Of a stretch of DNA of 64,000 nt, positions 31,665 through 61,304 are shown one piece after another. Position numbers and translations under genes: made by a program. The stretch is taken from positions 1,408,001 to 1,472,000 of the forward strand of contig CBDCKW010000009.1 of the NCBI GenBank assembly GCA_965218435.1. Direction: 5' to 3'. This DNA comes from Truepera sp. Its GTDB lineage: Bacteria; Deinococcota; Deinococci; Deinococcales; Trueperaceae. Under the pieces are notes generated by a model, which did not search any database, was not told the DNA's origin, and was given only the letters and a program-made list of their open reading frames with translations. How positions within the stretch are numbered: the first letter of the stretch is position 1; every line of letters starts with the position of its first letter.

Positions 31665-31680
31665 CCAAGATGTAGCCCTA

Positions 31681-34740: not shown

Positions 34741-34784
34741 TTGCAGAGTATAGCGCCTCGAATAAAACCACCAAGAATCTCAGA

Positions 34785-34829
34785 GAAATAAATTTTTCAC
34801 GAGCAGATGTGTTGTGAATTAAAACACTT
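34785..34829 (+). repeat. 45-bp dispersed element, copy 1
   Basis: GAAATAAATTT-TTCACGA-GCAGATGTG-TTGTGAA-TTAAAACACTT. Confidence 0.8.
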
Positions 34830-35134
34830 AAAAGTCATCGGAACAGTGCTCCCGGCAAGGGTTGTAACCGACGCCACCTCAGAGCGTGGGTCCTGATTAG
34901 AAAAACTTATGCTGAAAAGCGGTCCTATCCTGAACTTCGGTCCTACCCATTAGACGCTACTTGCTCACGTAGGAGAGAACCGGCATAAGGCTTTCGGCGT
35001 TATGCAACACCGCCTACGGTAGGTTTTCAGCTTCGTTTGCTACAATAACGACCACAGTACAATTCGTGCCCTGAAAGGAGTTTTAACGTCCGTTCGCCCG
35101 CCGCTTTAATTTTTGGCAACAAGAAAGGAACACC

Positions 35135-36652
35135 ATGATTCAAGATGTAGAAAGCCGCGTTAAACCCCCCGTAGATTTCAAAAAACGTTACGACAACTTT
35201 ATCGGCGGCGAGTTCGTTCCTCCAGCGAAGGGGATGTACTTTGAAAACCCCTCACCGGTCACCGGTCAAACCTTTTGCGAGGTCGCCCGCTCGACCGCTG
35301 AAGACGTCGAAAAAGCGCTCGACGCCGCGCACGCTGCCAAGGGCGCGTGGGGCCGCACCTCACCGGCGGAGCGTTCCAACATCCTCTTAAAGATCGCCGA
35401 CCGAATCGAAGAAAACTTGGAAACGCTCGCCAAAGTCGAAACCTGGGACAACGGCAAGGCGCTCCGTGAAACGGTGGCCGCCGACCTGCCGCTCGCGGTA
35501 GATCACTTCCGCTATTTTGCCGGGGCGATTCGCGCCCAAGAGGGCGGGATTTCACAGATTGACAACGACACCGTGGCGTACCACTTCCACGAGCCGATCG
35601 GCGTGGTGGCGCAGATTATCCCGTGGAACTTTCCTATCCTGATGGCAACCTGGAAGCTTGCGCCGGCCCTTGCAGCAGGCAACTGCGTCGTCTTAAAACC
35701 TGCTGAGCAAACCCCGATTGGCATCATGTTCGTCGCCGAACTCATCGCCGACTTGTTGCCCGCCGGTGTGCTCAATATCGTCCAGGGTTTCGGTGTCGAG
35801 GCCGGGAAACCGCTGGCGAGCAGCCCGCGCGTCGGCAAGGTCGCCTTTACCGGTGAGACCACGACGGGCCGCCTGATCATGCAGTACGCCTCGGAAAATC
35901 TGATCCCGGTGACCTTAGAACTCGGCGGAAAGTCGCCCAACGTCTTTTTTGAAGATGTGATGCGTGAAGACGACGCCTACTTCGACAAGGCGTTAGAAGG
36001 CTTTGCGTTGTTCGCCCTCAACCAAGGCGAAGTCTGCACTTGCCCGAGCCGCGCCCTGATTCAAGAATCGATCTACGACGCCTTTATGGAGCGCGCCGTG
36101 GCCCGCGTGGAAAAGATTCAGATGGGCAATCCTTTAGACCCCAATACGATGATGGGCGCACAGGCGTCGAACGACCAGTTAGAAAAAATCTTGTCCTACT
36201 TTGACATCGGTAAGTCTGAAGGGGCGAAGGTTTTGACGGGCGGGCAACGTAAGCAGATTGAAGGGTTGGAAGAGGGCTACTACGTCGAACCGACCATCTT
36301 TGAAGGCAACAACAAGATGCGCGTCTTTCAAGAGGAGATTTTCGGCCCGGTCGTCTCGGTGACTTCGTTTAAGGATGAAGCCGATGCGCTCGCTATCGCC
36401 AACGATACGCTCTACGGCCTCGGAGCCGGGGTTTGGAGCCGTGACGCCGACATCTGTTACCGGATGGGGCGCGGCATTCAAGCGGGCCGGGTCTGGGTCA
36501 ACAACTACCACGCGTATCCCGCGCACGCGGCTTTCGGCGGCTACAAGCAGTCGGGTGTAGGCCGTGAAAACCACCTGATGATGTTAGACCATTACCAGCA
36601 GACCAAAAACATGCTGGTGTCTTACAGCAAAGACGCGCTCGGGTTCTTTTAG
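35135..36652 (+). CDS. NAD-dependent aldehyde dehydrogenase (AldB/ExaC type)
   Basis: [37 protein letters not shown]. Confidence 0.95.
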
Positions 36653-36664
36653 ACTCTGACGTCA

Positions 36665-36700
36665 AGCCTCGAGCCCCGTTTGCAGGTTGGGCTCGAGGCT
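36665..36700. other. Perfect 12-bp-stem hairpin between the aldehyde dehydrogenase and DUF779 genes
   Basis: AGCCTCGAGCCC / GGGCTCGAGGCT, no U-tract. Confidence 0.65.
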
Positions 36701-36851
36701 GCTTCTGACAGCGGTTTACAGTGGAAACTTAAGTTGGGAATGAAAAATATAGAAGGCAGAATCCTGGACGCTTCTGTATTCTTCATTTTGCCTTCCACCT
36801 TCTCACTTACAACGAACTGTCACCCTACTCGAAACCCAAAAAGGAGAACGT

Positions 36852-37274
36852 ATGGATACAGTTAAACGCACCGCCGACGGGCGCGTCGAACGGGTCGGTA
36901 TCACCCCGAAGGCCGCTGAGCTGTTAGAGACGCTTAAGGTGATTCACGGCCCGCTGATGTTTCACCAGTCGGGTGGGTGTTGCGACGGCTCGTCGCCGAT
37001 GTGTTACCCACGCGGCGATTTCCGGCTGGGTCAGGTAGACATCTATCTCGGGACGGTCGCGGGCGCACCGTTTTACATCAGCGCGTCGCAGTACGAGTAC
37101 TGGAAACACACGCATCTAACGGTTGACGTCGTAAAAGGACGCGGCAGCGGGTTTTCAGTCGAAGCGCCCGAAGGCGTGAGGTTTTTAATCCGCTCCCGAA
37201 TTTTTAGCGACGAAGAGTACGCGCAGCTTTTGGCCGAGGGTGAGCCGACTCGAGGTGACCAACACGAACATTAA
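36852..37274 (+). CDS. DUF779-family protein
   Basis: FHQSGGCCDGSSPMC; AAGGAG RBS; usual neighbour of AldB-type genes. Confidence 0.9.
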   Translation: MDTVKRTADGRVERVGITPKAAELLETLKVIHGPLMFHQSGGCCDGSSPMCYPRGDFRLGQVDIYLGTVAGAPFYISASQYEYWKHTHLTVDVVKGRGSGFSVEAPEGVRFLIRSRIFSDEEYAQLLAEGEPTRGDQHEH

Positions 37275-37278
37275 CTAA

Positions 37279-37323
37279 GAGCTAAAATTTTCACAAGCAA
37301 GAGTATTGTGAAATAAATCATTA
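37279..37323 (+). repeat. 45-bp dispersed element, copy 2
   Basis: GAGCTAAAATT-TTCACAA-GCAAGAGTA-TTGTGAA-ATAAATCATTA. Confidence 0.75.
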
Positions 37324-37374
37324 GCTCTAGCTTGTATGGCAGCTGAAAAGGGGAGAAGCATGTTCTAAGAACCT

Positions 37375-38055
37375 TTAGGCACGTGCAAAACCGTCCTGAT
37401 AGTCGGTGACAAACTGTCTCAAGCTGAGAGGCCCTCGTCCCAGCAACGTAGCGGTGTCGGCTGTAGTCCCGGCAGCGAGGCCAAACCGACACGCACTGTA
37501 GAGCGCGAGCCTCACGAAGATATACCCGCGCGGCAGCCCCCGTGAGCGCATCCTCCGGTAAAAGGTGAGGGGATTTGGATTAGTGTAGCTCACCCTTCTC
37601 CCCAACACGTCGGAAAAAATCTGCGCCGCTTCGGTGTAGCTTAGCGCCACCGACCCCGTAAGCTCGTAGGCTTTACCGTCGTGACCTGCTTCGGTCAGCA
37701 CCTTGGCTGCGACCGCGCCGACGTCTCTGGCGTCAATAAAATTCGTCCGACCGTGCCCCGCCGGGACAAAAATCTCATCGTGTTCCCGGACGTCTTGAGC
37801 GTGAACGCCGGAGAGGTTTTGCATAAAAAACGAGGGGCGCAAAATCGTCACCTCAAAATCGGATGTCTTGAGGTAATCTTCGACGCGGCGATGCGGTACC
37901 AGCGGGTTTTTCTCCGCCCCCTGGACCGACATAAAAACGACGTGCCGAACCCCTTGGGCACGGGCGACCTCGAGCGCCGGGAGCATCTCTCTGTTGATCT
38001 TCGTCAGCTGCGGTGGCCGCATTAAAAACACCCTGTCAACGCCCGCAAAAGCTGC
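37375..38055 (-). pseudogene. 5'-truncated NmrA/atypical SDR oxidoreductase
   Basis: AFAGVDRVFL, LRPSFFMQN, IDARDVG, YELTG; no N-terminal GxxGxxG. Confidence 0.7.
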
Positions 38056-38252
38056 CGTTCGGGCCGGTTGTACCTTCGGTTAGCTTCACGGGTCCCCCTT
38101 TATCCCAGAGTAAGCGGGTTTGTCTAGACTGTAAAGGAGTTTCTCAACCTGAAGATGATAGGCAAACCGTAACTGTTTGAGCAGCCTGGGTACAACAACC
38201 TTACGGTTTTACCGTTGGGGAACAGCGGCTGGGAAACAGGAAAAGTCCATAA

Positions 38253-38297
38253 AGGACAATTATTTCACAAGCAGTAGTGTTGTGAAATAAAACACTT
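38253..38297 (+). repeat. 45-bp dispersed element, copy 3
   Basis: AGGACAATTAT-TTCACAA-GCAGTAGTG-TTGTGAA-ATAAAACACTT. Confidence 0.8.
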
Positions 38298-38370
38298 GCC
38301 GTCCTATATGGGTAACTTGACCAGGGTCTTGTAGGTCTTTGGCTAAACCTACGACTTAAAAATCGTCTTA

Positions 38371-38928
38371 CTACGTTTCAGTTTCCCAATGTGCCAGACA
38401 TTTAAGCAGCTCATAGACAAACACTACGTCTCCGAGTGCACGGTGGCTGGCGTGCTGCGTTAAAAGTTCTTCTAATCCCTCGGTGACGACCGCTTTATGG
38501 AGGCCGTAGCTGGGACGACCATGCGTTTTGGCGTAAAGCCGCATCGCGCAAACGTAGAGCAGCTTAGGGTGGGGGAGACGCCAGCGGGCGCTGGTCTGCT
38601 CGAGCATCCGTGCGTCAAAGGAAGCGTTCCACGCCAGCACCGTTGCGTCTCTGGCTAACGCGACAAACTCGGGCAACACCTCGGGCCAGCTCGGCTCGTT
38701 TTGCAGGGCGTCAAGTGAAATCCCGTGGACGCGCTCTGCGTACGGGTTCATGACCGGCGTCTGCGGTTTTAGAAGCGTGTTAAGCCGAACCGCGCCGGTC
38801 GTATCCATGAGCGCCACTTCGATGACCTCGGCATCTTTTAGACCGGTCGTTTCGGTGTCGAGGATCAGGACGTCGGTCCGGCCCAAGAGCTTCCGGGCAG
38901 CTTCAGCGACGCGCGTTTGAGCTAACAC
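38371..38928 (-). CDS. DEDDh 3'-5' exonuclease
   Basis: LDTETTG, WNASFD, HRALGD. Confidence 0.9.
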   Translation of the reverse strand: MLAQTRVAEAARKLLGRTDVLILDTETTGLKDAEVIEVALMDTTGAVRLNTLLKPQTPVMNPYAERVHGISLDALQNEPSWPEVLPEFVALARDATVLAWNASFDARMLEQTSARWRLPHPKLLYVCAMRLYAKTHGRPSYGLHKAVVTEGLEELLTQHASHRALGDVVFVYELLKCLAHWETET

Positions 38929-39048
38929 ACGGTCCTAGCCGTCAACGAGCTTGAAGGTAGGTCATAAAGCATCGTTATCATTGTAAAGGTAGTGCAGTGC
39001 GGCGCACGTACGCTACACTGACGCAGACAAGCACGACGAGAGGACAAC

Positions 39049-40521
39049 TTGATGAGCACAACGCCTAAAGAAACGACCGCCACCAAAGCACAAGCAGACA
39101 TCGGTCTGATCGGCCTCGCGGTGATGGGCCGCAACCTGGTCTTAAACCTAAACGACCACGGCTACAAGGTCTCGGTCTATAACCGGACGACCTCGAGGAT
39201 GACCGACTTTACCCACGGCGAGGCGAGAGATACCGAGGTCACGGGTTACGCCGAGTTGCCGGAGTTTGTCGCGTCCCTTTCAACCCCGCGCAAAGTCATG
39301 TTGATGGTTGAAGCGGGCCGCCCGGTTGACGCGGTGATCGCGGAACTTACGCCCCTGTTAGAGCCCGGTGATATGGTTATCGACGGCGGCAACTCGAACT
39401 TTGAAGACACCCGCCGCCGCGACCACGAACTGAGGGACCGAGGCTTTCACTTTATCGGGACCGGGATTTCCGGCGGTGAAGAGGGGGCGCGTCACGGCCC
39501 CTCGATTATGCCGGGAGGCTCGCAGCAAGCGTGGCAAGAGGTTAAACCCATTTTGCAGAGCATCGCCGCGCACGTTCACGGCGTCCCCTGTTGCGACTAT
39601 GTAGGCGAAGACGGCGCGGGTCACTTTGTCAAAATGGTCCATAACGGCATCGAATACGGCGACATGCAGCTGATCGGCGAGGCGTACGGTTTGATGCGCA
39701 CAGTGCTGGGGCTGAGCGCCGACGACATGAGCGCGGTCTTTAAGCAGTGGAACACGGGCCGCTTGGACTCGTATCTCGTTGAAATTACCGGAACCATCTT
39801 GGCGGTTAAAGACAAAGACGGGTCGCCTTTAGTCGAGAAGATTCTAGACGTTGCCGGACAAAAAGGTACCGGACGCTGGACGGTGATCGCGGCACTTAAC
39901 GAAGGGATTCCGCTGACGCTGATCGGCGAGGCGGTCTTCTCCCGTTCGCTCTCGGCGCTTAAAGACGAGCGGGTGGCCGCGTCGAAAGTTTTAGGCGGTC
40001 CGGACGCGCCCACGGCTCCCGAACGAGACGCGTTTATCAGTGACCTCGAGGACGCCCTCTACGCCGCTAAAATCGTGTCGTACGCCCAAGGCTACATGCT
40101 GATGCGCTCAGCGGCCGAAACTTACGGTTGGAACCTCAACTACGGCGGCGTCGCGCAGATGTGGCGGGGCGGTTGCATCATCCGCTCAGTTTTTTTAGAC
40201 AACATCAAAGACGCTTTTGATCACAACGGTGAGCTCGCCAACTTGCTTTTAGACCCGTACTTTCAAGCAGCGGTCACCAAGGCGCAAGCCGCGTGGCGGC
40301 GGGTGGTGGCGACGGCGGTGGCGTGGGGCGTCCCGGTTCCGGCATTTTCAGCGGCCCTCGCCTTTTTCGACGGTTACCGCACCGCCGACCTCCCGGCGAA
40401 CTTGCTCCAAGCCCAACGTGACTTTTTCGGGGCACACACCTTTGAACGGGTTGATGAGTCCAGAGGCACCTTTTACCATCACAGCTGGCTCGGTGACGCC
40501 GGGGGGACGGCCGAGGGCTAA
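39049..40521 (+). CDS. gndA: NADP-dependent 6-phosphogluconate dehydrogenase
   Basis: GLAVMG, SGGEEGARHGP, KMVHNGIEY, QAQRDFFGAH. Confidence 0.96.
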   Translation: MMSTTPKETTATKAQADIGLIGLAVMGRNLVLNLNDHGYKVSVYNRTTSRMTDFTHGEARDTEVTGYAELPEFVASLSTPRKVMLMVEAGRPVDAVIAELTPLLEPGDMVIDGGNSNFEDTRRRDHELRDRGFHFIGTGISGGEEGARHGPSIMPGGSQQAWQEVKPILQSIAAHVHGVPCCDYVGEDGAGHFVKMVHNGIEYGDMQLIGEAYGLMRTVLGLSADDMSAVFKQWNTGRLDSYLVEITGTILAVKDKDGSPLVEKILDVAGQKGTGRWTVIAALNEGIPLTLIGEAVFSRSLSALKDERVAASKVLGGPDAPTAPERDAFISDLEDALYAAKIVSYAQGYMLMRSAAETYGWNLNYGGVAQMWRGGCIIRSVFLDNIKDAFDHNGELANLLLDPYFQAAVTKAQAAWRRVVATAVAWGVPVPAFSAALAFFDGYRTADLPANLLQAQRDFFGAHTFERVDESRGTFYHHSWLGDAGGTAEG

Positions 40522-40623
40522 GCACTACTCGCTTAAAGACGGGTTCACCGTAAATTAATTCTTCCTTAATGTAAGGACGGTTACAACAGACCTTTGTGTT
40601 CCTGATCTGGTACGCTGAGCACC

Positions 40624-43437: not shown

Positions 43438-43550
43438 GTTGTAGCCGGTATCGTCCAGGTAGCAACGTCCGCTTGGCTTTTACCGACCGGCACGCATATT
43501 CTGTGATACCTGTAGCGTAGTAGCCTTGCCCAGAAATGGCAACAGCTGTG

Positions 43551-44546
43551 CTACCAGTCTCGGGTCACGTCCTCGAGCGCCTTTTCACTGACTTTGGCGT
43601 AGATTGTCGTGGTGGCGATGTTTTTATGCCGCAGATGGGTTTGGGTCCGCCTGAGGTCGCCGGTTTCTTCGTACATCCGGGTTCCCGATTGGTGCCGGAG
43701 AGGATGGAGTGCGCGGTAGTCAACCCCGGCGGCGGCGCAGAGCGCCCGGAGCCGCTGGCGCAGACGTTCGTCGCCGTAGGGGAGAACCTTGCCCGCTCTC
43801 GTTTTACCTTTGCGCCGCACCGTCGTATCGGTTTTGAGCACCTCGAGCGCGGTGACGAGACTTTGAGACAAAGCCACGCTGTCCACGTAGCCACCTTTAC
43901 CCCGAACCTGGAGCCGCTTTGTTTTAAGGTCAACCGTGCGCCACTCGAGCCCTGCCGCTTCATGAGCACGTAACCCGGCGTGGGCGCAGAGCAGGAGTGC
44001 TGCGGTGTCAGCCGGGTCAGTAGCAACGTTGAGAAGCGCCCCCAGGTCGGCCTGCGGATAAGGCTGAACTTTTTCCCACGCCGGGACGGGATCGTGAACG
44101 CCTTTAACTGAGGCAAACGGGGTTGCGTCGGTGGCCCCGGCCCAGTGCAGCGCCCGGTAGAGTACACGGGCCGCGGCCAGCGTTTTGTTGACGGTCGAGG
44201 GCGAGCGGTAACGGGGTGGGCCGTCGGTACCGGTATTAAAAGGTGTTTCTTTAAGCCACGCTCGGTAGCGGCTCCCCATGCGGCGGCTGGGGCGCAAAAG
44301 GTTTTCGTGAACGTTGGCCGTGACAAAAAGTCCGACGCCGTGGCGGTACGCCTTAAAGGTCAGGCGGCTTAAGTTGCCCTTGTCGGTGGTGTCCTCGAGG
44401 TACGCCTGCGTCAACACCCAGAGCGCAGCGGCGTCCCGGTCGCCGGCGGCTTGCAAGGCAAAACGGCGGAGGGCCTCGTCGTCTAAACGGCGGGTAAGGC
44501 TGACTTGCTCGAGCTCACCCGTGGGTGTGTAGGGCGTCAGAGTCAT
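43551..44546 (-). CDS. Tyrosine recombinase (XerC/D-like)
   Basis: GLRAHE, GKGG, HPLRH, LRH..TTTIY catalytic set; TACACT 5 nt before the ATG. Confidence 0.92.
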   Translation of the reverse strand: MTLTPYTPTGELEQVSLTRRLDDEALRRFALQAAGDRDAAALWVLTQAYLEDTTDKGNLSRLTFKAYRHGVGLFVTANVHENLLRPSRRMGSRYRAWLKETPFNTGTDGPPRYRSPSTVNKTLAAARVLYRALHWAGATDATPFASVKGVHDPVPAWEKVQPYPQADLGALLNVATDPADTAALLLCAHAGLRAHEAAGLEWRTVDLKTKRLQVRGKGGYVDSVALSQSLVTALEVLKTDTTVRRKGKTRAGKVLPYGDERLRQRLRALCAAAGVDYRALHPLRHQSGTRMYEETGDLRRTQTHLRHKNIATTTIYAKVSEKALEDVTRDW

Positions 44547-44641
44547 GCTGTAGTGTAACCGCTAAATACATAATAAGATTGTAGTGAGAATGTTCGTTCT
44601 CCAAAATAGGATAGGTTTGTATAGAGTCTTTTAATCATGAA

Positions 44642-45370: not shown

Positions 45371-45387
45371 GCTTCCACCACCCGGCC

Positions 45388-45585
45388 TCAGTCTTCCTTG
45401 TCAGCGTGGCGAACGTCCAGCACAGTTTCTAGGTCGAACCGTGGTGCGCTGAAATATACAGGAGTAACGGGCTCAGGCTGTTGGTTTGGAGATAAAGTCC
45501 GAGATAAAAGACTTTCAAATTCAAGTGGTTCTATCTCTAGTTCCTTAGAGCGTGAACCATTCAGAGCGACTTCTAAAGGCGGCAT
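45388..45585 (-). CDS. 65-aa hypothetical protein
   Basis: TAGAAT 5 nt before the ATG, matching the window's leaderless pattern. Confidence 0.45.
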   Translation of the reverse strand: MPPLEVALNGSRSKELEIEPLEFESLLSRTLSPNQQPEPVTPVYFSAPRFDLETVLDVRHADKED

Positions 45586-46325
45586 GGGGGATTCTATACC
45601 GATCAGCTATAGCTAAATAAGCTATAGCTAGATAGAGGTCGAATCAATAAAAGTGTCGCGGCAAAGCGAAGAGCTATTCTCCAAAATAAACGCTCGTTCA
45701 CCCCTGTCTTACGCCGTAGCCTGAGCCTGATGAACTCGCCCCTCGGCGCAAGTAGTGACGCAAATAGTGCTTTACAGTACCTCTCAAACCTGGTGTGTTT
45801 TGGCGGTGGGGCTGGGTTTCGCTTCTTAGCGTGTAGTAGGTCGAGTCACATCCTCTGATACGGACTTGGCCGACTAGCGCCAGCTCTTGGCAGATACTGT
45901 ACATTTGCCCCGGAGTCAGACTGTTCGTCCTAGAAAACTCGATAAAGCTCCCATGCCAAAATGAGTGGTCTTGATGAGACTCGATGTGAACGTATAGGTT
46001 ATTTGGTTCCATGAGGCAGCATAGTCTGCGGTAGTTGCGACCCCTTTGCGACCTTTTTGCGATTTTTTGCGGTCAGCTTGCTGAGGCAGGTTGCGGCAAA
46101 CATGTGGACATGCAGTAGGATTTTAGCGAACACCTTGGCGTCTGGTCCGCTGGATTGCGGTTCTCGCAAAAGCCAGGACGACTCTTTCATTCGTTCTGAG
46201 CTTCCATAGCTGTTCTTCATAGGTGCGATAAGGCACACGCAGCTTTACAAAGCTCGAGGATGCTTGTAAGAGGATGCTTGTAAATTGACGTCACCTCAGT
46301 GCAGCTGCTCGATCCCCTCTCACTT

Positions 46326-47190: not shown

Positions 47191-47392
47191 GTACCTCACT
47201 CCTCTAGGGCCGAGCACATGGTCGCCCTCTACCCTATCACTGCAACTTGCAGTCTGTCTCTCAGTGACCGAGCCTATTTAGCTCTTGGCCTCGCAACGAG
47301 CCAGGACGTCTATACTGCCGAGCGTGCCCGGGCTAATGAGTTATTTGACCTCGAGACGATAGGGATTGACTGAGGTAGCGTTATATACGATT

Positions 47393-47437
47393 AAATGAAA
47401 TATTTCACAACACCCTAGCATGTGAAATATTTATTTC
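47393..47437 (-). repeat. 45-bp dispersed element, copy 4 (inverted)
   Basis: Minus strand: GAAATAAATAT-TTCACAT-GCTAGGGTG-TTGTGAA-ATATTTCATTT. Confidence 0.75.
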
Positions 47438-47636
47438 CTCGAGGGTCTAGAGACAGCTGTATGAGCCGCAAGCAGGCTGTTAAGAATGGAGATATTTGAT
47501 GTTAAATAACGTTTTGAAAGTGAGCTTGCGGCTGGTGGTTCGCCTGTGACACAACGACTGGTTGCTCCGTTGGTGTTAGAAGCAAAACGGGCGCACAAGG
47601 TTTATAAAACAACTTACTTATGGAAACAGCAAGGCG

Positions 47637-50179: not shown

Positions 50180-52697
50180 GTACCACGCCCTGGTTCTCGG
50201 CAACGGAAAGTTTTCTTTTCGATGAGTTTAGGAGGTTGGCGCACTGAAAAACAGGCGCAACGACGAGCGTCTCCTTAACTAAATCTTTTTTTGAACAAAG
50301 CTCGAAAGTAAACGACTCACCCGGTAGCAGCGTTACGAGTTGGTCGCTGACCGTCGCGTCCGGGTCTAACCTGTCAATAAAAATAGCGACGTCGCGGAGC
50401 AAGGTTTTAGCTGTCAGGGTCAAGGTGTAAAGGTCGCCGTCACGTGCCAACTTTGCCTCAACCTGCACGTCGGGATACTGGAGGTTCTTGTCCCGCTCAA
50501 AAAACCACAGCGCCCGCTCTTGACCGACCTGGGCGACGATGAGTTCGGCTCGAGAATCGTCCGGCGTACTTAGGGTAGCGGGAAGCTCGAGCACGCCCTG
50601 GGTCGTCCGCTTAGGAACGTCTATCCTTAGACTCTCCGCAGCTAAGACCTCACCCGCAAAACTCACCCGCCGCAGCGTGACCTCCCCCGTCCACACCTCA
50701 TCGCTGTCGTTACAGGCAAAGAGCACGAGCTTGCCGCCGCGCGGCTGAACGCTCAAGAGTCTATCGGCGTAAAACCGTTTGGTGGCGTACCAAAAGGGCT
50801 TTTTACGCCCGTACCCGTCTACCGCCGCCCAACTCGTCACCGGCCAGCAGTCGTTGAGCTGCCAGTAGAGCGTACCCATACAGGTCGGCTGATGGCTGCG
50901 CCAGTGCGTCACGCCGTATTCAACCGCGCGAGCTTGGTTGAGCTGTGTGGCGTAGAGCCAAGCGTCAAAGTTTTGCGGCTCGGGAAAGTACTCGAGCAAC
51001 CTGTCCAGCAGCTTCTGATTGCCGTCAACCGCCTTTTGGTGATGCAGCATCCCTGGTGAATCGGGTTTTATGGGCCGCTCGCTCAACGACGCGGCCAGAG
51101 TTGCGTAGGTCGCGGGAGCTTGATGCCCGAATTCGGAGACGAAGCGCGGCACGTAAGCGCGGTAAACGTCGTAGTCGAGCGTGTTCCAGGCGTCCCAGAT
51201 GTGTTTGTTGCCGTGGTTGTCGGCCAGCGGGTGAATGTCAAACGAACCCGAGTAGGGGCTACCCGGCCAGTAAGGGCGGGTCGGATCGAGTTCGGCAACG
51301 ATACGGGGCAGCAGCTCCAAGTAGTACCCTTGGCCCCACGTACGCCCCTCGAGTTTTTCTTGCCAGCCCCACGAAAAGTAACCCCAGATGTTCTCGTTGT
51401 TGCCGTCCCACAAGACCAAACTCGGGTGCGAACTCAGCCGCGTGACCTGATAACGCGCTTCGGCCTCGAGCTCGCTCCAAAACGGCTCCTCTTCCGGGTA
51501 GGCGGCGCAAGCGAACAAAAAGTCTTGCCAGACGAGGATACCCAGCTCATCGCAAACCTCAAAGAACGCTTCTTGCTCGTACAAACCGCCGCCCCAGACG
51601 CGGAGCATGTTCATGTTCGCTTCGAGGGCTTGCGTGATGCGTTCGCGGTAACGCGCCTTAGTGATACGCGTGGGAAAGCAGTCGTCGGGAATCCAGTTCG
51701 CGCCCTTGATAAAGATGGGTTTATGGTTGATTTTTACCGTGAAAGCCGAGCCGATAGGGTCTACCGAAGTATCCAACTCGGTTTTGCGAACGCCGATGCG
51801 CTTAGTCCGTCGGTCAAGAGCCGCGTCGCCCTGTGTGAGCGTCAAGGTGAGATCGTAAAGCGGCTGCTCACCGTGGCCGACGGGCCACCAGAGGTCGGGG
51901 TTGTCCAGCTCGAGTTCAAACACCGCCTCGGTCTGTCCCGCAATCACCTCGACTGTCGTCTGCACCCCGGCAAGCTCCGCCGTAAGTTGCGCCGCGCCGG
52001 TACCGGTAGTCCAGTCGAGTTCGGCGTGAAGTTCGACTCGAGCCTTCAATAGGTCGTCGTTGAGATAGACGAGCGGGCGCACCGCCCCGAGCCGCGCCCC
52101 GCTCCAAGCTTCTAGATAGAGCGGCTGCCAGATGCCCGCAGTGGTCAGCGCCGGACCCCAGTCCCAACCGAAGTTACACGCCATCTTGCGGATGAAGTTA
52201 AACGGCGCGTCAGGGTAAGCGTTCGGCAGATCGCCGTGCTCGTCGCGCACGCCCTCAGCGTAGGTTACGGGCGCAGCGAAGGTAATGCTGAGGACGTTCT
52301 CCCCTGCCTTAACCAGCGGTTTGATATCAAACCGGTACGCGCGGTGCATATTTTTGGTTTCCGCGACCACTTGGCCGTTCAGCTTAACGCGGGCCACGGT
52401 GTCCAAACCGAGACAGACCAGCTCGAGCCGGTCGTGATCCAACTGTGCAGCGGTAAGCTCGAGCTGCGTCTCAAAACGCCAGTCGGTACGCCCAATCCAC
52501 TGCAACTCGTTTTCGTTTTGGCCTAAGTAAGGGTCGGGGATAAGACCTTGGGCGAGCAGGTCGGTGTGAACGCACCCCGGTACGGTGGCGGGAATAAGCT
52601 GACCCTTGATGGCTCCCGGTACGTGCCCCAGGTCGCCCACGGCCTGAAGCGTCCACGACTGGTTACTTAGCGACTGGTTAAGCGGGTATTGATTCAT
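50172..52697 (-). CDS. GH2 beta-mannosidase-like enzyme
   Basis: FGWDWGP, KGANWIP, RVWGGG, GNNE, FVSEFG, WQLNDCWP. Confidence 0.92.
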   Translation of the reverse strand: MNQYPLNQSLSNQSWTLQAVGDLGHVPGAIKGQLIPATVPGCVHTDLLAQGLIPDPYLGQNENELQWIGRTDWRFETQLELTAAQLDHDRLELVCLGLDTVARVKLNGQVVAETKNMHRAYRFDIKPLVKAGENVLSITFAAPVTYAEGVRDEHGDLPNAYPDAPFNFIRKMACNFGWDWGPALTTAGIWQPLYLEAWSGARLGAVRPLVYLNDDLLKARVELHAELDWTTGTGAAQLTAELAGVQTTVEVIAGQTEAVFELELDNPDLWWPVGHGEQPLYDLTLTLTQGDAALDRRTKRIGVRKTELDTSVDPIGSAFTVKINHKPIFIKGANWIPDDCFPTRITKARYRERITQALEANMNMLRVWGGGLYEQEAFFEVCDELGILVWQDFLFACAAYPEEEPFWSELEAEARYQVTRLSSHPSLVLWDGNNENIWGYFSWGWQEKLEGRTWGQGYYLELLPRIVAELDPTRPYWPGSPYSGSFDIHPLADNHGNKHIWDAWNTLDYDVYRAYVPRFVSEFGHQAPATYATLAASLSERPIKPDSPGMLHHQKAVDGNQKLLDRLLEYFPEPQNFDAWLYATQLNQARAVEYGVTHWRSHQPTCMGTLYWQLNDCWPVTSWAAVDGYGRKKPFWYATKRFYADRLLSVQPRGGKLVLFACNDSDEVWTGEVTLRRVSFAGEVLAAESLRIDVPKRTTQGVLELPATLSTPDDSRAELIVAQVGQERALWFFERDKNLQYPDVQVEAKLARDGDLYTLTLTAKTLLRDVAIFIDRLDPDATVSDQLVTLLPGESFTFELCSKKDLVKETLVVAPVFQCANLLNSSKRKLSVAENQGVVRG

Positions 52698-52706
52698 AGG
52701 GCTTCC

Positions 52707-54437: not shown

Positions 54438-54442
54438 GTGCT

Positions 54443-55330
54443 CTAGCCCTTCGTCCCGCTCAGCGCGATGCCTTCAACGAACTGTTTTTGGAAGATTAGA
54501 AAAAAGATAACGGTCGGTAATGAGGTCAGGAGCGCCGCTGCCATGAGCACACCGACATTACCGGGGCCGCTCAGCACGCTGTTCAGATTTGAAAGGGCTA
54601 AGGGCAGCGTCAGGTGCGCCTGGTCACGGACGATAATCAGCGGCCAGACGAAGTTATTCCATTCGGAGAGCATCACAAAAATTGCCATCGCGGTCATCGC
54701 CGGACGTACCAGCGGCAAGATGATGCTCCACCAGATACGGAACTCGTTCGCGCCGTCAATTTTGGCCGCGTCGATGAGTTCATCGGGCAAGCCGAGCATG
54801 TACTGCCGTAAAAAAAAGACGGCGAAGGCCCTCGAGAGTCCCGGTACGACGATACCCGCAAAGGTATTGATCCACCCAAACGCTTTCATCGTCAAAAAGT
54901 TGGGGATGATGGTCACTTGCCAAGGGATCATCATCGAGGCGACGATGATAAAAAAGACCACGTTGCGCCCCGGGACCCGCCCTTTGGCCAGCACGTAGCC
55001 CGCTGCCGAGGCCATCAGCAGCGAGACCACCGTGACGATGACCGTGATAAAAACGCTGTTAAAGTACGCCGTACCAAACCCCCAAGGCGCTTCTTGAAAA
55101 CGCTGAAACAACCCCGGAATGTGCTGCGGCGCGTTCGGCGTTGCGTCGTAAAAGTTGTTGAGCGAAGGGGTTTCTACCGTAAAGGTAGGCGGGTTTCGAA
55201 TCAGTTCCGGCACCGGCTTAAAGGCCCCGATCACCATCAGGTAGTAGGGTACGACCATCGAGAGCGCCAGGATAACAAAAGGTAGACGGACGAGGCTGCT
55301 CAGCCACGAAGGTTTATTTTCACCGATCAT
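54443..55330 (-). CDS. Carbohydrate ABC permease (MalG type)
   Basis: LPDELIDAAKIDGA, WNNFVWPL. Confidence 0.93.
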   Translation of the reverse strand: MIGENKPSWLSSLVRLPFVILALSMVVPYYLMVIGAFKPVPELIRNPPTFTVETPSLNNFYDATPNAPQHIPGLFQRFQEAPWGFGTAYFNSVFITVIVTVVSLLMASAAGYVLAKGRVPGRNVVFFIIVASMMIPWQVTIIPNFLTMKAFGWINTFAGIVVPGLSRAFAVFFLRQYMLGLPDELIDAAKIDGANEFRIWWSIILPLVRPAMTAMAIFVMLSEWNNFVWPLIIVRDQAHLTLPLALSNLNSVLSGPGNVGVLMAAALLTSLPTVIFFLIFQKQFVEGIALSGTKG

Positions 55331-55339
55331 CGTGCCCCC

Positions 55340-56296
55340 CTAGTACGCGTCGTTGGCGCGGCCCAACCACAAGTTAATCATGGTGATGACAAAAATCACC
55401 AAAAAGAGCGCCCAGGCGATCGCCGAGGCGTACCCGAGCTGAAAGTAGGTAAACCCTTTTTCGTACAGATACGGCACCACAAACAGAGCTGAGTCGAGGA
55501 CCCCGCCGATGTTGCCGCCGACTGAGCCGAAGATCACGTAAGCTTGCTCGAAGATCTGAAAGCTGCCGATAATCCCCGTAACAACGACAAATAAGATAGT
55601 CGGGCGTAGTAGCGGGAAGGTAATCCGCCAAAACCGCTGCTGCGTGGTCGCGCCGTCAATGGCGGCAGCTTCGTGTAACTCTTTGGGTACGGCGTTAAGG
55701 CCCGCTAAAAAAAGCACCATCGCGTAGCCCATCCCGCCCCACGCACCGATAATAACCAAAACCGGAATAGACCAGCCGGGGTCGGCAAAAAAGGTAATTC
55801 GGCCCAAACCGAAGCGGGTCAAAAGCGCGTTGATCACGCCGAAACTCTGCCCTGAAAAAATCCAGATCCAGATCGTTAAGACCGCCAGCCCCGAGGTGAC
55901 CGAAGGCAAAAACAAAAGGGTTCGCAAAAGATAGTTCAACCAGGTGTTGGCGCGAAAAACCAGCGCCAGCGCCAGCCCTAAAACGTCGGTAATTAAGACC
56001 TGCGCCACCACTAACGTCAGGGTATTTTGCAGCGCCTTAAAAAAGCGGGGGTCACTCAGGAGTTCTTTGAAATTAGCTAGACCGACGAACTCGGGTGCTC
56101 TGAGGCCGCTGTATTCGGTAAAACTCAGGTAAAGAGACTGTCCCAGCGGCCAGATGGTAAAGATCATAAACCCGATTAAAAACGGCGCGGCCAGCAAGTA
56201 GCCTTGGGCAATACGCCTCGCCTTCGCTCCGCGAAAGCGGCCCCCGCCCCGCCGCACGACAACGACGTGCGGCGTCTCCGTGGTTGTGCTCATCAT
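55340..56296 (-). CDS. Carbohydrate ABC permease (MalF type)
   Basis: FVGLANF, EAAAIDGA, GYASAIA. Confidence 0.93.
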   Translation of the reverse strand: MMSTTTETPHVVVVRRGGGRFRGAKARRIAQGYLLAAPFLIGFMIFTIWPLGQSLYLSFTEYSGLRAPEFVGLANFKELLSDPRFFKALQNTLTLVVAQVLITDVLGLALALVFRANTWLNYLLRTLLFLPSVTSGLAVLTIWIWIFSGQSFGVINALLTRFGLGRITFFADPGWSIPVLVIIGAWGGMGYAMVLFLAGLNAVPKELHEAAAIDGATTQQRFWRITFPLLRPTILFVVVTGIIGSFQIFEQAYVIFGSVGGNIGGVLDSALFVVPYLYEKGFTYFQLGYASAIAWALFLVIFVITMINLWLGRANDAY

Positions 56297-56343
56297 AACC
56301 TCGTTTCACCCTAGTGACCCATGTCAATACAACCCGGTAAAGT

Positions 56344-56363
56344 GGGGAGGGCGTACCCTCCCC
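56344..56363 (-). terminator. Stem-loop after the sugar-binding protein gene
   Basis: GGGGAGGG-CGTA-CCCTCCCC. Confidence 0.6.
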
Positions 56364-56372
56364 TTGACGCCG

Positions 56373-57581
56373 CTAGTTAAGGTTTTTGTTCATCTCGTCA
56401 GCAGCAGCGTCGAGCGCCGCTTGCGGGTCAGCGCCGTTTAAGATGACCTCTTGGAGCTGCCGATCTACAAAAGCGTTCGACTCTTCCCAACCGGTGCAGT
56501 TGGGAGGGCCTGCTGCGTCTTTAAGCTGCGAGGTGAGGGCAGCCGTCACTTTTTCGGACAAGCCGCTCTGCTTAGCGTAGGCAACTACCGGCGTAATCCA
56601 GACCTGATTAACCTCAGACGCTTTGCTGAGCATCGCTTTCGCAGCTTCGGGGGTGTAGAGGCTACCGATAAACTCCGCGGCGACGTCTTTATTAGGTGAG
56701 GCTTCCATCACGCCGATCACGCGGCCCCCGATAAACGAGGTGCGTTTCCCGGTCGGCCCGGCCGGAAGCGGCGAAAAGTTGACCTGCTGGTAAAGGTCGG
56801 GGCGGCTGCTCTCTAAACCAAGCACCCAGCTCCCCTGATATCCGGCGACGAACTCGCCACTGGCCAACCCCCCCTCGACGTCAATATCGGCCTCGGGCGA
56901 GGTGTTGTACTCCGTGTAGAGGCTCGCGAAAAACTTGAGCGCCTCGAGTCCCTGGGGGCTGTTAATCGTCGCGGCGCTGCAGTCTTCGTTATAGAGCGTC
57001 CCGCCCGCTTGGTATAAAAACGGGAAGTAGCCGAGCCAGCTGGCGTTACCCCAACCGAAGCCGAGCCCTTTGTTGCCGTCTTTTTGCAGCGCGGCTGAAA
57101 GCTCATCCCAGGTCCCCGGCGTCTGACTGACGTCTTCTTTTTTGAGCAGGTCGGGGCGCGTGATAAAGGTCTGCAGGGTGAGGTCGAAAGGAACGCCGTA
57201 CACTTCACCCGAAGGCGGTACCACCGAGCTGTAAATCCCCGGCTGCGCGAGCTTTTGCACGTTGGCAACGAGGTCGGGGTAGTTGGCTTTGAGGTCAACC
57301 ATCCCGCCCTGCTTACCGAACTCGATGCCCCACGACAACCCGCCGGTAATGATGTCGGGGCCGGAGCCGCTGACCACCGCCGAGAGCACCTTAGCATGAG
57401 CGTCTTGCCACGAGATCGGCTGAATGTTAAAGCTCACGTCGGGGTGACTCTGTTTGAACAGGTCACCGGCGGCGTTTAAGATGGCCGTGTCGGTGTCGCC
57501 CCCGGTATTCCAGATCGTGATGGTTTGAGCGGATACGAGACTAAAACAGAGCAGGGCAAAAAGGATAACTAGCTTTTTCAT
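56373..57581 (-). CDS. Carbohydrate ABC substrate-binding protein
   Basis: Signal peptide, GSGPDI, YGVP; AAGGAG RBS. Confidence 0.9.
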   Translation of the reverse strand: MKKLVILFALLCFSLVSAQTITIWNTGGDTDTAILNAAGDLFKQSHPDVSFNIQPISWQDAHAKVLSAVVSGSGPDIITGGLSWGIEFGKQGGMVDLKANYPDLVANVQKLAQPGIYSSVVPPSGEVYGVPFDLTLQTFITRPDLLKKEDVSQTPGTWDELSAALQKDGNKGLGFGWGNASWLGYFPFLYQAGGTLYNEDCSAATINSPQGLEALKFFASLYTEYNTSPEADIDVEGGLASGEFVAGYQGSWVLGLESSRPDLYQQVNFSPLPAGPTGKRTSFIGGRVIGVMEASPNKDVAAEFIGSLYTPEAAKAMLSKASEVNQVWITPVVAYAKQSGLSEKVTAALTSQLKDAAGPPNCTGWEESNAFVDRQLQEVILNGADPQAALDAAADEMNKNLN

Positions 57582-57637
57582 ATCATCTCCTTAAAGGTGC
57601 GAACGTACGTACTGGACCGACGCGGACTGGATCGTCT

Positions 57638-58861
57638 TCACCTCCTCCCGGGCAGCAAGCTCTGAGCGGGCGGGCTCTGAGCGTTTTTTTCGAGCAGCTT
57701 GGGGTGGGGTACCAGCGAATCGTAAATCGGCAAGATCGCCACCCCCAAAGCGGCCGCGTCTTCACCGGCTTCGGCGTGAACGAGGCGTGGCTCGTAAGCT
57801 TTTTGGGCGATACGCAGTTCCGGCAAAAGCGCCGCGAGCTGCTCGAGCAGATAGTCAATCAGGGGCGCAGGCCACGAGCCCCCAAAAACGATGATTTCAG
57901 GATCAACAAAAAGTTCTCCGGCGACGAGTGCGGGCGCGAGCTGCTCAGCGGCGCACTCGAGCCAGGTCAGCAACACGTCGTTCTGCGCCGAAAAAAGTGG
58001 CTCGAGGTCACTTGGGGCAGTAACGGGATGACCGGCACGCCCCAGCTCTTGATAAAGCGACGGGAGGTCGAAAAAACTCCCTACCCGGTCAACTTTTTTG
58101 TCAGCACGGCGAACCGGCATAAAGCCGAATTCGCCGGTGTTACCTTGAAAGCCGTGAAACGGTTGACCGTTTAGCACAATCCCGCCGCCCAAACCGACGC
58201 CCAAAAAGACGTAGACGAAGCTCGCTACCCCTTGACCGACACCGTAAAACGTTTCGCCGATCGCTGCGGCGGTCGCGTTGTTTTCTAAAAATATCGGCAG
58301 GTCGAGGCGCTGAGCGAGCTCGTCTACGACCGGCACATTCTCCCAACCGGGAAACGAGTTCGGGTTGACGATTTGGTCTATGACACGGCCGTCACTGATG
58401 CGAATAGGCCCCGGCAACCCCACCCCGACGCCCCAAACCCGGCTGCGCTCGAGCTCTTGTTCGGCGATGAGCTGTTCCGTGACTGAGGCCATCAGCGCCA
58501 GCGCCTCGGCCGGTACCGGAAAATCGAGGGCCTGATGAAACCGCCGCTGAACGGCTCCGTTCAAATTGACCAACACGCCGGTTAAATGATCGCGGTCGAG
58601 GTCAAGTCCTACCGCGAAAGCTCCGTCTGCGCGAAACTCGAGCTGCGCCGACGGTGCGCCGCGGCTACCCTGTTTACGGCCCGTTTCTACCACCAAATTT
58701 CTGTGGATCAGCTGAGCCGTGATGTTAGAAATTGTCTGCGGCGTCAGCTCGGTGCGCCGCGCGACCTGAGCACGTGACAGCGGCCCGTAAAGCCGAACGG
58801 TCTCGAGTACAATTCGGGCGTTATAGATTTTGGCGTACTCGAGGTTCGTTCCCTTAAGCAC
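57638..58861 (-). CDS. ROK-family transcriptional regulator
   Basis: N-terminal HTH SRAQVARRTELT; GVGVGLPG, ENNATAAAIGE, GEFG. Confidence 0.92.
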   Translation of the reverse strand: MLKGTNLEYAKIYNARIVLETVRLYGPLSRAQVARRTELTPQTISNITAQLIHRNLVVETGRKQGSRGAPSAQLEFRADGAFAVGLDLDRDHLTGVLVNLNGAVQRRFHQALDFPVPAEALALMASVTEQLIAEQELERSRVWGVGVGLPGPIRISDGRVIDQIVNPNSFPGWENVPVVDELAQRLDLPIFLENNATAAAIGETFYGVGQGVASFVYVFLGVGLGGGIVLNGQPFHGFQGNTGEFGFMPVRRADKKVDRVGSFFDLPSLYQELGRAGHPVTAPSDLEPLFSAQNDVLLTWLECAAEQLAPALVAGELFVDPEIIVFGGSWPAPLIDYLLEQLAALLPELRIAQKAYEPRLVHAEAGEDAAALGVAILPIYDSLVPHPKLLEKNAQSPPAQSLLPGRR

Positions 58862-58910
58862 AGGAGACCTTTCTGCAACCGAGGCGTCACGCTTCTTTAG
58901 AGGTGCCGAT

Positions 58911-58940
58911 ATAGTATTTCAAATTGATAATAGATGTCAA
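58911..58940 (-). promoter_or_regulatory. Promoter of the sugar operon with a possible ROK operator
   Basis: TTGACA-N18-TACTAT; the spacer holds the imperfect palindrome TTATCAATTTGAAA. Confidence 0.6.
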
Positions 58941-59040
58941 GGGTCACTTAAATCATTCCAAAACTTGCAAAGTACTACCGAGAAAGTTCCGGTTCTTTTT
59001 TCTAACTGCCGGGTTAGAAAGATTTAGTTGGTTTTACGAC

Positions 59041-59153
59041 TAGAAGCCATCTCAAAAACCCTTGGCGGGCGGAGCCCGGTGAGGGTTTGACCGAGCTAGG
59101 CGAGTAAGATAGGACGCTCTCACGCTAGAAAGCCATTTTTGAGATAGGTTCTA
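59041..59153. mobile_element. MITE-like element, 113 bp
   Basis: TAGAAGCCATCTCAAAAA / TTTTTGAGATAGGTTCTA inverted repeats (16/18), TA at both ends, non-coding interior. Confidence 0.65.
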
Positions 59154-59407
59154 ACTACACCTTCGAGCTCGAGCCTAGAAAGCACGCATCCTCGGCCGAA
59201 TAGTCAGCTTCGGGAGTCACCGCGCCGAGCACCGGATTGGTCAATGAACATACCTTCGTCCCAGTACCGAGCGTTTAGACGCTCAGCAGGGCAAAAAAAA
59301 TGCCGTGACAGTCTCTCTACAAAACAGCGTGGCTACTTTGCTCTCCGGAATGCCTCGGTATGTTTAGCTTGTATCGGCAGTCTGGCAGGTGAGTAAGTAC
59401 CCACAGA

Positions 59408-60205
59408 TCACTCGGGCTTGCCCAGTCGGATAGGGCTACGTTCTGCGATCCAAGGCGTATACCCGGCCTCGGCAAAGTAAAGACCGTGCGGCGGCACATT
59501 CGGCCCCAGCCGGCGGCGATCTTTGGTGTCTAAAAGAGCCGGTATCGCACTAGGACTCACTTTGCCTTCACCGACCCCGAGGAGCGTCCCGACGAGCGCC
59601 CGCACCATGTTGCGTAAAAACCCGTCGGCGGCGACGTGCAGCGTCAGGTCTGCCTCGTGCGCGGCCAAGCGGCAGAGAAACACCGTACGGACCGTCGGCC
59701 GCGTCTCCTGGGTCGCCAGCGCCGCGAAATCGCGGGTGCCTTCAAAGTGAGGGGCAGCGGTCTGCATCGCCCCTACGTCGAGGCGTTGGGGCAGCAAAAG
59801 GACGCGGTGACGGTCCAAAGCCGAGCCTGCCAGCCCACACGGGCCGTTCAGTAAGCGCAGACGGTACTCGTAGCGGCGGTAACAGCAGCCAAACTGGGCT
59901 TCAAAGTCGGGCGGGGCGTCTTCAGCTCGTAACACGCGCACGTCCCTCGGCAAACGGGCGTTGAGGGCAGCGGCAGTGCGGGCGATAGGAACCTTGTCTT
60001 CGGTCAGGTAGTGCGCGGTCATGGCGAGCGCGTGAACGCCCGCGTCGGTACGACCCGCCGCCATCACCCGCGGCACTGCGCCGGGAACGTCCGAGAGGGC
60101 CGCCTCGAGCACCCCCTGCACCGTCCTCTCCCCTGTTTTGGCCTGCACCTGCCAGCCGTAAAAATCGGTGCCGTCGTACTCGAGCGTCAGTTTAACTTTG
60201 CGCAT
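59408..60205 (-). CDS. truA: tRNA pseudouridine(38-40) synthase
   Basis: YDGTDFYGWQ, AGRTDAGVHA, FLRNMVR. Confidence 0.95.
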   Translation of the reverse strand: MRKVKLTLEYDGTDFYGWQVQAKTGERTVQGVLEAALSDVPGAVPRVMAAGRTDAGVHALAMTAHYLTEDKVPIARTAAALNARLPRDVRVLRAEDAPPDFEAQFGCCYRRYEYRLRLLNGPCGLAGSALDRHRVLLLPQRLDVGAMQTAAPHFEGTRDFAALATQETRPTVRTVFLCRLAAHEADLTLHVAADGFLRNMVRALVGTLLGVGEGKVSPSAIPALLDTKDRRRLGPNVPPHGLYFAEAGYTPWIAERSPIRLGKPE

Positions 60206-61088
60206 GGGTTAGCCGCTTGAGCTGTTGCGGTTTGGGCGCGAGCCCAGTTCTTTGCGCGAGCCAGGGCGTCAGGTAGAGTGCGAGATAGGCGATCACCGCG
60301 TAGCGGAAAAACCCACCTAGGGCGCTGCGTTTGACGGCTTCGCTTAAGAGCAGGCTCGAGGCGCTGAGCGCAGCGAACGCCAGCGCGACGCCGAACACCG
60401 CGACGACCAGCCGCGCCCACAGGGGTTTGGGCGGCGCGTAGGGCATAAGGAGCGGGGCGCTGCCGAACGCGGCCAGTGCGCCCATCATCAGGTTGGCCTC
60501 GAGCCCCGGCGGTGGCAACACGAGTAAGAGGGCAAGCGGCAGAAAAAACCCCACAGTCGCGCGTAGCGGTACCGCCATTCTCTTGAGACTCTCCCAAAGC
60601 GGTTCGGCAAACGCCGCCGTCGCCGTATAGACCACGCCGATGACCAGTCCCCCGACGACGTCTACCGGAAAGTGCATCCCCAGATAGAGCCGTGACAGCG
60701 AAATCAGCACAATAACAAGGGTAGCGAGCGCCCAAAACCACGGCCGCTTGAGCCACCACGCCGCGTACCCCCAAAAGCTCAGGCTGAGCTGCGCGTGCCC
60801 ACTTGGAAACCCCGGCCCACTCGTGGGGACCGCTTCCGGGGTACGGGCAACTGAAAGGTCAAGTAAAAAGGGCCGCTCGGTGCCGACCAGCCCTTTGAGG
60901 TGAAAGTTGAGATAAAACCCGACCAGGACAAAAATCCCCAACCGCTGCCCCAGCCGCGCGTCGAGCGCCAGATAGGTTCCGAGCAGCAAGATGATATAAG
61001 CGCGGGTTCCGCCCAGCGCACTCATAAACCGAAAAAAGTGGTCGAGCGTCGGCGACGCGAACTGTTGCAGTGCGGCGATGGTTTCCAT
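60192..61088 (-). CDS. PAP2-family membrane phosphatase
   Basis: K..ERP, FPSGH, SRLYLGMHF. Confidence 0.9.
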   Translation of the reverse strand: METIAALQQFASPTLDHFFRFMSALGGTRAYIILLLGTYLALDARLGQRLGIFVLVGFYLNFHLKGLVGTERPFLLDLSVARTPEAVPTSGPGFPSGHAQLSLSFWGYAAWWLKRPWFWALATLVIVLISLSRLYLGMHFPVDVVGGLVIGVVYTATAAFAEPLWESLKRMAVPLRATVGFFLPLALLLVLPPPGLEANLMMGALAAFGSAPLLMPYAPPKPLWARLVVAVFGVALAFAALSASSLLLSEAVKRSALGGFFRYAVIAYLALYLTPWLAQRTGLAPKPQQLKRLTHAQS

Positions 61089-61259
61089 AGGGTCTGAAGC
61101 GCAGTCTAGCAAGCCCAGCCCACCACAAAACTTCAGGTTAATGAGGAATGAAGAGAGCTGCAGCTAAAACCAAACCGTAACGGAAAGATAATCCGGCAGC
61201 CTCTCTGTGGCCTTAGCAGACGAAAGGTGAGGCGTTAGGAGGCTGAGCACCTTAGCAGT

Positions 61260-61304
61260 AAGTGCTTTAATTCACAACGGTCTAGCTCGTGAAATTTTTG
61301 TTTC
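61260..61304 (-). repeat. 45-bp dispersed element, copy 5 (inverted)
   Basis: Minus strand: GAAACAAAAAT-TTCACGA-GCTAGACCG-TTGTGAA-TTAAAGCACTT. Confidence 0.8.

Follow-up and report, generated by a model that had tools for sequence, protein, structure and literature searches.

Polar 46-bp sites around the replication terminus of a Truepera chromosome: a possible replication fork trap built from Rex-like operators

Introduction

Two unrelated replication fork traps, Tus/ter and RTP/ter, are described according to one review (PMC6549158), by which tus and rtp are confined to four clades and are absent from most bacteria; a second source (PMC7174701) agrees on two traps and mentions Deinococcus for its ploidy only. 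In both systems non-palindromic sites point to dif (PMC6549158), and for RTP-Ter the two sources describe two opposed groups of such sites (PMC6549158, PMC7174701), a layout that recurs in the array reported here. The array consists of polar 46-bp sites, five of which lie in a 64,000-nucleotide stretch of the chromosome of Truepera sp. (chromosome C9, positions 1,408,001-1,472,000; hereafter, the window). Our literature search, which lay largely outside subscription journals, returned nothing on these sites or on a terminus role of Rex.

The RTP protein is a winged-helix dimer, and its Ter site combines a strong core with a weak auxiliary dimer site, the core facing the blocked fork. The sites described here differ from RTP-Ter in having another sequence, a length of 46 bp, boxes that do not overlap and a spacer that varies by 1-2 bp. 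Their candidate binder, a metabolic repressor, has its gene at a distance from all of the sites. RTP is confined to some Bacillales. Tus acts as a monomer on a 23-bp site. The E. coli Tus-Ter system resembles the present array in its roughly ten polar sites round the terminus, with the outer ones hundreds of kilobases off and related sites on extra replicons, but here each site holds two inverted half-site pairs and the inner gap is 2-32 kb in most genomes. Profiles for Tus (PF05472) and RTP (PF02334) had no match in this genome, while control searches in E. coli and in B. subtilis were positive, and MatP was not found in this genome either.

MatP/matS and the XerD-bound sites at which SMC is unloaded are similar in that multiple protein-binding sites mark the terminus. 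However, matS is palindromic and unoriented, whereas the 46-bp sites are oriented, and the genome has no MatP and no XerD over the cut-off. Single-recombinase Xer/dif systems (XerS/difSL, XerH/difH, XerA/dif) share with this locus a single terminus recombinase gene with a dif-like site just upstream (window 44580-44607). That likeness concerns the neighbouring dif-like site and not the 46-bp repeat, and the recombinase (43551-44546) falls below the XerC, XerD, XerS and XerA cut-offs; the best match in the genome to the XerD equivalog reached 195 bits against a cut-off of 330. The 46-bp array is outside the Tus-Ter, RTP-Ter, dif and MatP families, and it is real and ancient.

In sequence the sites come close to the Rex operator. 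Rex is a winged-helix dimer that is released by NADH (PMC6125430), with the consensus TTGTGAAW4TTCACAA (PMC2883068). The inner half-sites of the 46-bp sites (TYGTGAA / TTCACRA) and their 4-bp spacing follow this consensus, the outer halves less closely; rex is universal in the order, and the solved Rex chain 1xcb is of the array type. Unlike ordinary Rex operators, the sites are tandem, asymmetric, oriented with respect to replication, confined to the terminus and often placed between convergent genes, and no dispersed regulon was found in this genome.

Results

The 46-bp element

The window holds five copies of the element:
34785..34830, + strand: polar terminus site copy 1, left arm; at the same place in G004 and G005
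37279..37324, + strand: polar terminus site copy 2, between convergent genes; at the same place in G002, G004 and G005
38253..38298, + strand: polar terminus site copy 3, closest to the centre on the left arm
47392..47437, - strand: polar terminus site copy 4, closest to the centre on the right arm
61259..61304, - strand: polar terminus site copy 5, right arm

An earlier note on this DNA had reported five intergenic copies at these places and strands, and direct inspection bore this out, including the arms (TTCACRW / TTGTGAA), the 9-bp spacer starting with GC and ending with GTG in three copies, and the WTAAARCACTT tail and GAAAYAAA head, each seen in three copies; the length, given there as 45 bp, is corrected to 46 bp. 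Copy 2 does lie between convergent 3' ends, and the NmrA gene between copies 2 and 3 is indeed truncated, in that its 5' end is cut (profile positions 93-244 of 298, with an in-frame stop upstream). A site occurs 3' of the same exonuclease gene as copy 3 in four related genomes (G001, G002, G004 and G005).

A scan of the 4.8-Mb assembly, which the earlier note had proposed as a check, was done with a matrix trained solely on relatives' sites. It returned nine sites scoring 45-55 bits and no other match above 8, and the maximum in reversed and complemented chromosome controls was 9.1 (two-part matrix). The repeat is far beyond chance. Eight of the sites are on chromosome C9, three of them outside the window, and one is on contig C5; a decayed tenth is on contig C7. 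The sites on C9 are:
1,150,154; 1,442,785; 1,445,279; 1,446,253, + strand: 46-bp sites from the matrix scan
1,455,392; 1,469,259; 1,551,952; 1,721,360, - strand: 46-bp sites from the matrix scan

The consensus reads A-tract, TTCACRA, GC, 5-6 variable bases, WT, YGTGAA, N4, WTCACTT. Read outward, each arm forms one half of a box whose halves are 4 bp apart, as in the Rex consensus; the site consists of a weak box on the origin side and a strong TYGTGAA-N4-WTCAC box on the terminus side, with centres 27-28 bp apart. Among 123 distinct sites the inner half-sites depart from the Rex half by about 0.5 mismatches, and in the site logo GTGA is followed by an A, and TCAC preceded by a T, that hardly vary and are of the Rex type. 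The fixed 9-bp spacer of the earlier description holds in this genome only; across the order it is 8-11 bp (9 bp in 77 of the 123 sites, 10 in 41, 8 in three and 11 in two). The spacers of all ten sites in this assembly differ from one another. In two runs of one sample, about a quarter of the depth at window 34804-34808, within the central spacer of copy 1, carries a variant; this centre varies freely.

Searches for other identities of the repeat were negative. An Rfam scan of 33000-63000 gave a tRNA only, with no match to a structured RNA or an RNA resembling repetitive extragenic palindromes; a promoter scan of 34600-38500 and a scan of a plasmid collection gave matches at chance level. Viral contigs yielded 81 matches to the core pattern, and none of the 80 examined scored 30 or more (the median of true sites is 44.5). 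One viral contig (L213:1300-1540; also L229 and L269) has about ten TTGTGA-N-TTCACA palindromes in an intergenic run, two of them in the same 9-bp tandem spacing; these are iteron-like and unrelated.

Orientation around the replication terminus

The property that the earlier interpretation, which is partly supported overall, did not contain is that the element flips orientation at the replication terminus. The eight C9 sites read ++++---- in order, all those to the left of the terminus being on the + strand and all those to the right on the - strand, and the switch coincides with the skew peak, with a switch in octamers resembling FtsK orienting polar sequences (KOPS) and with the recombinase. 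The landmarks are:
47670 (C9 1,455,670), no strand: cumulative GC-skew maximum of the chromosome
43778..43785, + strand: KOPS-like octamer RGGGGAGA, last left-arm copy
52298..52305, - strand: KOPS-like octamer, first right-arm copy

On the left arm RGGGGAGA has strand counts of 115+/20-, and on the right arm of 11+/110-, with the switch between window positions 43,778 and 52,298, and FtsK is encoded in the genome. The cumulative skew minimum, at C9 3,382,200, is next to two parS words and 12 clustered DnaA boxes. C9, the only contig checked for closure, closes with a 9-bp end overlap. The rightward fork must copy about 85 kb more than the leftward one. The 37 kb between the antipode of the origin and the inner left site carry strong left-arm skew (+0.021, vs -0.016 beyond), as would be expected if the early fork waits in a trap; a recent change in chromosome length would give this too.

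Several features lie nearby. The replicative helicase gene dnaB (window 20634-21965) is 13 kb from copy 1, near the terminus. A split M24 peptidase gene, a split helix-turn-helix plus DDE transposase, a tRNA and the 5'-broken NmrA gene occupy window 30462-32941, 33452-33525 and 37375-38031; the split and broken genes near the copies are decay typical of a terminus region. On the secondary contigs, sites lie just 3' of Xer-like genes (C5:378404 and C7:11874). On C5 the distance between the site and the point opposite a parS-like word (25076) is 11 kb. The KOPS-like switch on C5 is weak and is not located at the site.

Conservation across the order

A sequence-only model built from 30 sites (R1) matched 81 of 151 genomes in all five families of the order Deinococcales, single weak matches included; among the matches listed, the families contributed 13/41, 32/41, 1/15, 23/41 and 11/12. 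With a broader model (R2), matches were obtained in 13 of 29 selected genomes, in 19 of 21 drawn from the phylum and in 6 of 20 picked mostly as negatives. Genomes of genus g17 match mainly via the terminus-side box. G078, which has a normal Rex, had no R1 match, and six sites were found in it later. Looser patterns gave no site cluster in seven array-less genomes (G126, G008, G020, G060, G133, G152 and G035).

Polarity was assessed in a hand-compiled sample of 17 chromosome-sized contigs with dnaA and at least two sites. The order is strictly + then - in all 17 (99 sites, five families), and the product of chance probabilities for this is 10^-19, an overstated figure since kin share sites. 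A tyrosine recombinase lies within the inner pair in 17 of 17 contigs, the inner gap being 1.8-32 kb, and in 16 the centre of the array is at most 5% off the dnaA antipode. In the tightest arrays, those of G141 (1.8 kb) and G068 (3.1 kb), nothing but the recombinase gene is enclosed, and outer sites lie 270-700 kb from the array centre. Kept outside this count were G102, G147, G109 and G095, in which the chromosome is split or its length was not seen and the order is also + then -, as well as a weak + match in G046, where it overlaps a - site, and one decayed - site of G001. In genus g26 the inner gaps reach 280-480 kb (G102 C2, G147 C13), and in G102 the recombinase is outside the inner pair.

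With a rough gene caller, 111 sites could be classified by context as convergent (32), divergent (22) or tandem in either direction (57), and 9 of 123 sites fell inside an open reading frame call. The neighbours are hisS-aspS, asnS, smpB, smc, dnaE and similar housekeeping genes. In five genomes of two families (G001, G017, G141, G076 and G149) a site lies directly upstream of smc:
L014:13160, L027:9947, L073:1734, L048 and L051, same direction as smc: smc-upstream sites, from locus comparison

Rex and the array

The conservation of Rex co-varies with the presence of the array. At 43 conserved columns the DNA-binding domain carries on average 0.47 changes in genomes with the array (n=19) vs 2.65 in those without (n=17), and the NAD domain in the same 36 genomes carries 2.74 vs 2.76. 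In 30 fresh genomes, with the columns fixed beforehand, the DNA-binding domain had 0.19 changes with the array (n=16) and 4.57 without (n=14). A C-terminal NP motif is present in 35 of 35 Rex proteins from array-bearing genomes vs 6 of 31 from the others, and isoleucine at position 9 in 34 of 35 vs 7 of 31. Two control regulators, DdrI (27 rows) and NrdR (30 rows), showed no shift with array loss. In family f2 the end branches of Rex are 0.39 (G100) and 0.31 (G133) long, vs 0.01-0.08 for controls.

The Rex of array-bearing G089 is identical by eye to the solved chain 1xcb over the aligned part. Array-less G133 (L137) has an 8-residue insertion in the winged-helix domain of Rex, and the Rex of G152 (L313) is longer than usual. 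A dispersed Rex-box regulon was not found in this genome, which has two intergenic single boxes besides the array, and none of 36 genomes has a Rex box before rex itself except for a weak one in two.

The terminus recombinase and its dif-like site

Between the inner sites lie:
43551..44546, - strand: single Xer-like tyrosine recombinase at the array centre, with R, H-x-x-R, H and Y motifs
44580..44607, no strand: dif-like site, 11-6-11, with a GAGAA-N6-TTCTC core; kept before the gene in G002, G004 and G005

The recombinase had been taken for a gene of an islet with copy 4 at its edge, and it turns out to be a conserved terminus gene; the 2.8 kb between it and copy 4 have no match in relatives' loci. 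The dif-like site is likely to be the target of the recombinase and is distinct from the 46-bp element. It is inverted relative to the recombinase gene in comparison with G002, G004 and G005. Its arms recur with another spacer twice on contig C8, and right-arm copies occur on C5 and at window 45667-45690. An 11-mer resembling a XerD arm lies at window 47497-47507, 60 bp to the right of copy 4 and by the skew peak, and has a 2-base insertion variant in one run.

The recombinase clades tested each have their own palindrome with a 6-bp spacer before the gene, including array-less G016, G015, G113 and G154 and array-bearing G129. In these five genomes (L081, L094, L095, L096 and L070) it is GATAA-N6-TTATC, a candidate dif of those lineages. 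A motif sampler found no such 6-bp-spacer palindrome in three other recombinase groups. Outside the core of the genus, identity of the central recombinases to the queries is 27-49%, and these proteins cluster with lineages carried on plasmids; the core of the 46-bp site is constant. The terminus recombinase has been replaced repeatedly. The terminus recombinases of G001 and G068 (L013, L075) have a long N-terminal extension and group with a 463-residue recombinase at C5:152086-153477, and that of G031 groups with another C5 lineage.

Discussion

What is the function of a polar array that marks the terminus in many members of an order? The polarity, place, order-wide conservation and two-box anatomy of the sites, together with the co-variation of Rex, fit best with a model in which two Rex dimers on each 46-bp site form a polar barrier around the terminus, which would be a third kind of replication fork trap. 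We put the chances of this at about even. The layout of the array is that of Tus/ter and RTP/ter, and we count this in favour of a fork trap. In the model, two Rex dimers would bind the site cooperatively. A fork arriving from the origin would meet the weak box first and pass, and a fork that overshoots dif would meet the strong box first and be held, by analogy with RTP, such that forks are let into the terminus and not out of it. NADH, which releases Rex in other bacteria, may open the barrier. A more tentative extension, to which we give somewhat less credence, is that in the Deinococcota Rex serves as a replication terminator through tandem dimers and a lineage-specific NP tail, forming a redox-gated barrier that opens as NADH rises, and that this is its main job in the phylum; such a trap would have evolved independently of the other two and would be the first one gated by redox state.

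Several observations weigh against this model. The skew peak falls some 230 bp beyond the inner pair, the uncorrected skew peak at four-fold sites is 17 kb further right, and the array of G129 (C1) is 25% off the dnaA antipode. The outer half-site on the origin side has 4.5 mismatches of 7 and is mostly lost, and that on the terminus side has 2.9. All 65 other genomes searched have Rex (35/35 and 30/30), with or without the array, and its DNA-binding domain is unchanged in array-less G126, G060, G113, G154, G081, G035 and G152. In the fresh sample the NAD domain also drifts (2.75 vs 4.57, p 0.07), and G016 and G020 are fast-evolving in DdrI too. The genomes are kin, so that p-values overstate the case, and in the Rex tree the array-less ones form about 11 separate branches; G007, G008 and G126, with one weak match each, were counted as array-less. 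Finally, polarity toward dif is common to FtsK and SMC traffic and does not single out forks.

An alternative mechanism is that the array, probably bound by Rex, directs chromosome segregation by stopping or unloading FtsK or SMC coming from the origin side, or by positioning Xer/dif at the septum. Since forks, FtsK and SMC all move in the same direction, this is the main rival, and we regard it as possible, if on the unlikely side. FtsK is present and the KOPS-like switch falls at the same point, the tightest arrays hold nothing but the recombinase gene, and sites adjoin the Xer-like genes of C5 and C7 and precede smc in five genomes. In B. subtilis, XerD acts as a site-bound protein that unloads SMC at the terminus, which we also count for this alternative. 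However, the far-flung outer sites and the wide inner gaps of G102 and G147 have more in common with the E. coli trap, array-less G016, G015, G113 and G154 retain smc and the recombinase at the terminus, and KOPS-like words are not enriched 5' of the 123 sites (10 vs 12). KOPS fused to the site was seen by eye in g17 genomes.

It is also conceivable, but improbable, that the fork trap is bound by another dedicated protein or by the CRP-family regulator DdrI, with lifestyle relaxing Rex as a by-product. DdrI binds TGTGA-N6-TCACA, a pattern that the terminus-side box fits as well, and ddrI is linked to genome segregation (PMC11253593), and the seven array-less genomes with an unchanged Rex DNA-binding domain could be read in the same way. 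As a binder, DdrI is not supported: it was not found with the query used in array-bearing G129 and G102, and its helix-turn-helix is not relaxed in array-less genomes. In the loci examined, no small gene accompanies the sites solely in array-bearing genomes, and only the recombinase and housekeeping genes recur beside the sites, with no dedicated terminator gene; the A after GTGA and T before TCAC are, moreover, of the Rex type.

The earlier note had leaned toward sites for the capture or shuffling of gene modules. Under this very unlikely reading, the copies are dif- or pdif-like tyrosine-recombinase sites for capture, excision or inversion of modules, and the inverted arms around an asymmetric spacer and the Xer-like neighbours on C5 and C7 fit it. 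Gene content between copies varies among species, four genes (exo-gnd-GGDEF-xer) form a block that is inverted in G001 and G004, and the ends of three homology blocks fall at the 3' edge of a site; terminus-centred inversions together with poor intergenic conservation explain all of this equally. Tyrosine recombinase sites have a fixed spacer of 6-8 bp, and the 8-11 bp across the order is outside that range. Recombining copies need matching spacers, and all ten here differ. The recombinase clades tested have their separate 6-bp-spacer site, in array-less genomes too, and the recombinase has been swapped with plasmid lineages while the 46-bp site stayed constant. Among the joints listed in contig sets from four runs, none starts or ends at a copy, and no excised, inverted or empty form was seen there, bearing in mind that contigs drop rare forms. 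The recombination-site reading is already largely refuted.

Barely credible is the reading as ordinary double Rex operators controlling adjacent redox genes, which has the Rex geometry and the position of copy 1 between divergent oxidoreductase genes in its favour, but 32 of 111 sites lie between convergent genes, orientation is independent of the neighbours, those neighbours are mostly housekeeping genes, and operators give no reason for the flip at the terminus seen in 17 of 17 contigs. Of the two remaining suggestions in the earlier note, that of chromosome-organising protein sites stands, and the double Rex-like geometry is probably real, with the sites serving as terminus markers rather than promoter operators.

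If the fork-trap model is true, an ancient, order-wide third fork trap in polyploid, radiation- and heat-resistant bacteria would change the picture of two traps. The terminus and dif of this group would become definable by sequence. If Rex binds, a textbook metabolic repressor, whose Thermus structures are the models for the family, has an unrecognised chromosomal role, and replication termination or segregation could be tied to NADH. Because the array has been lost naturally within one genus, and a thermophile amenable to genetics carries it, each of these steps is directly testable.

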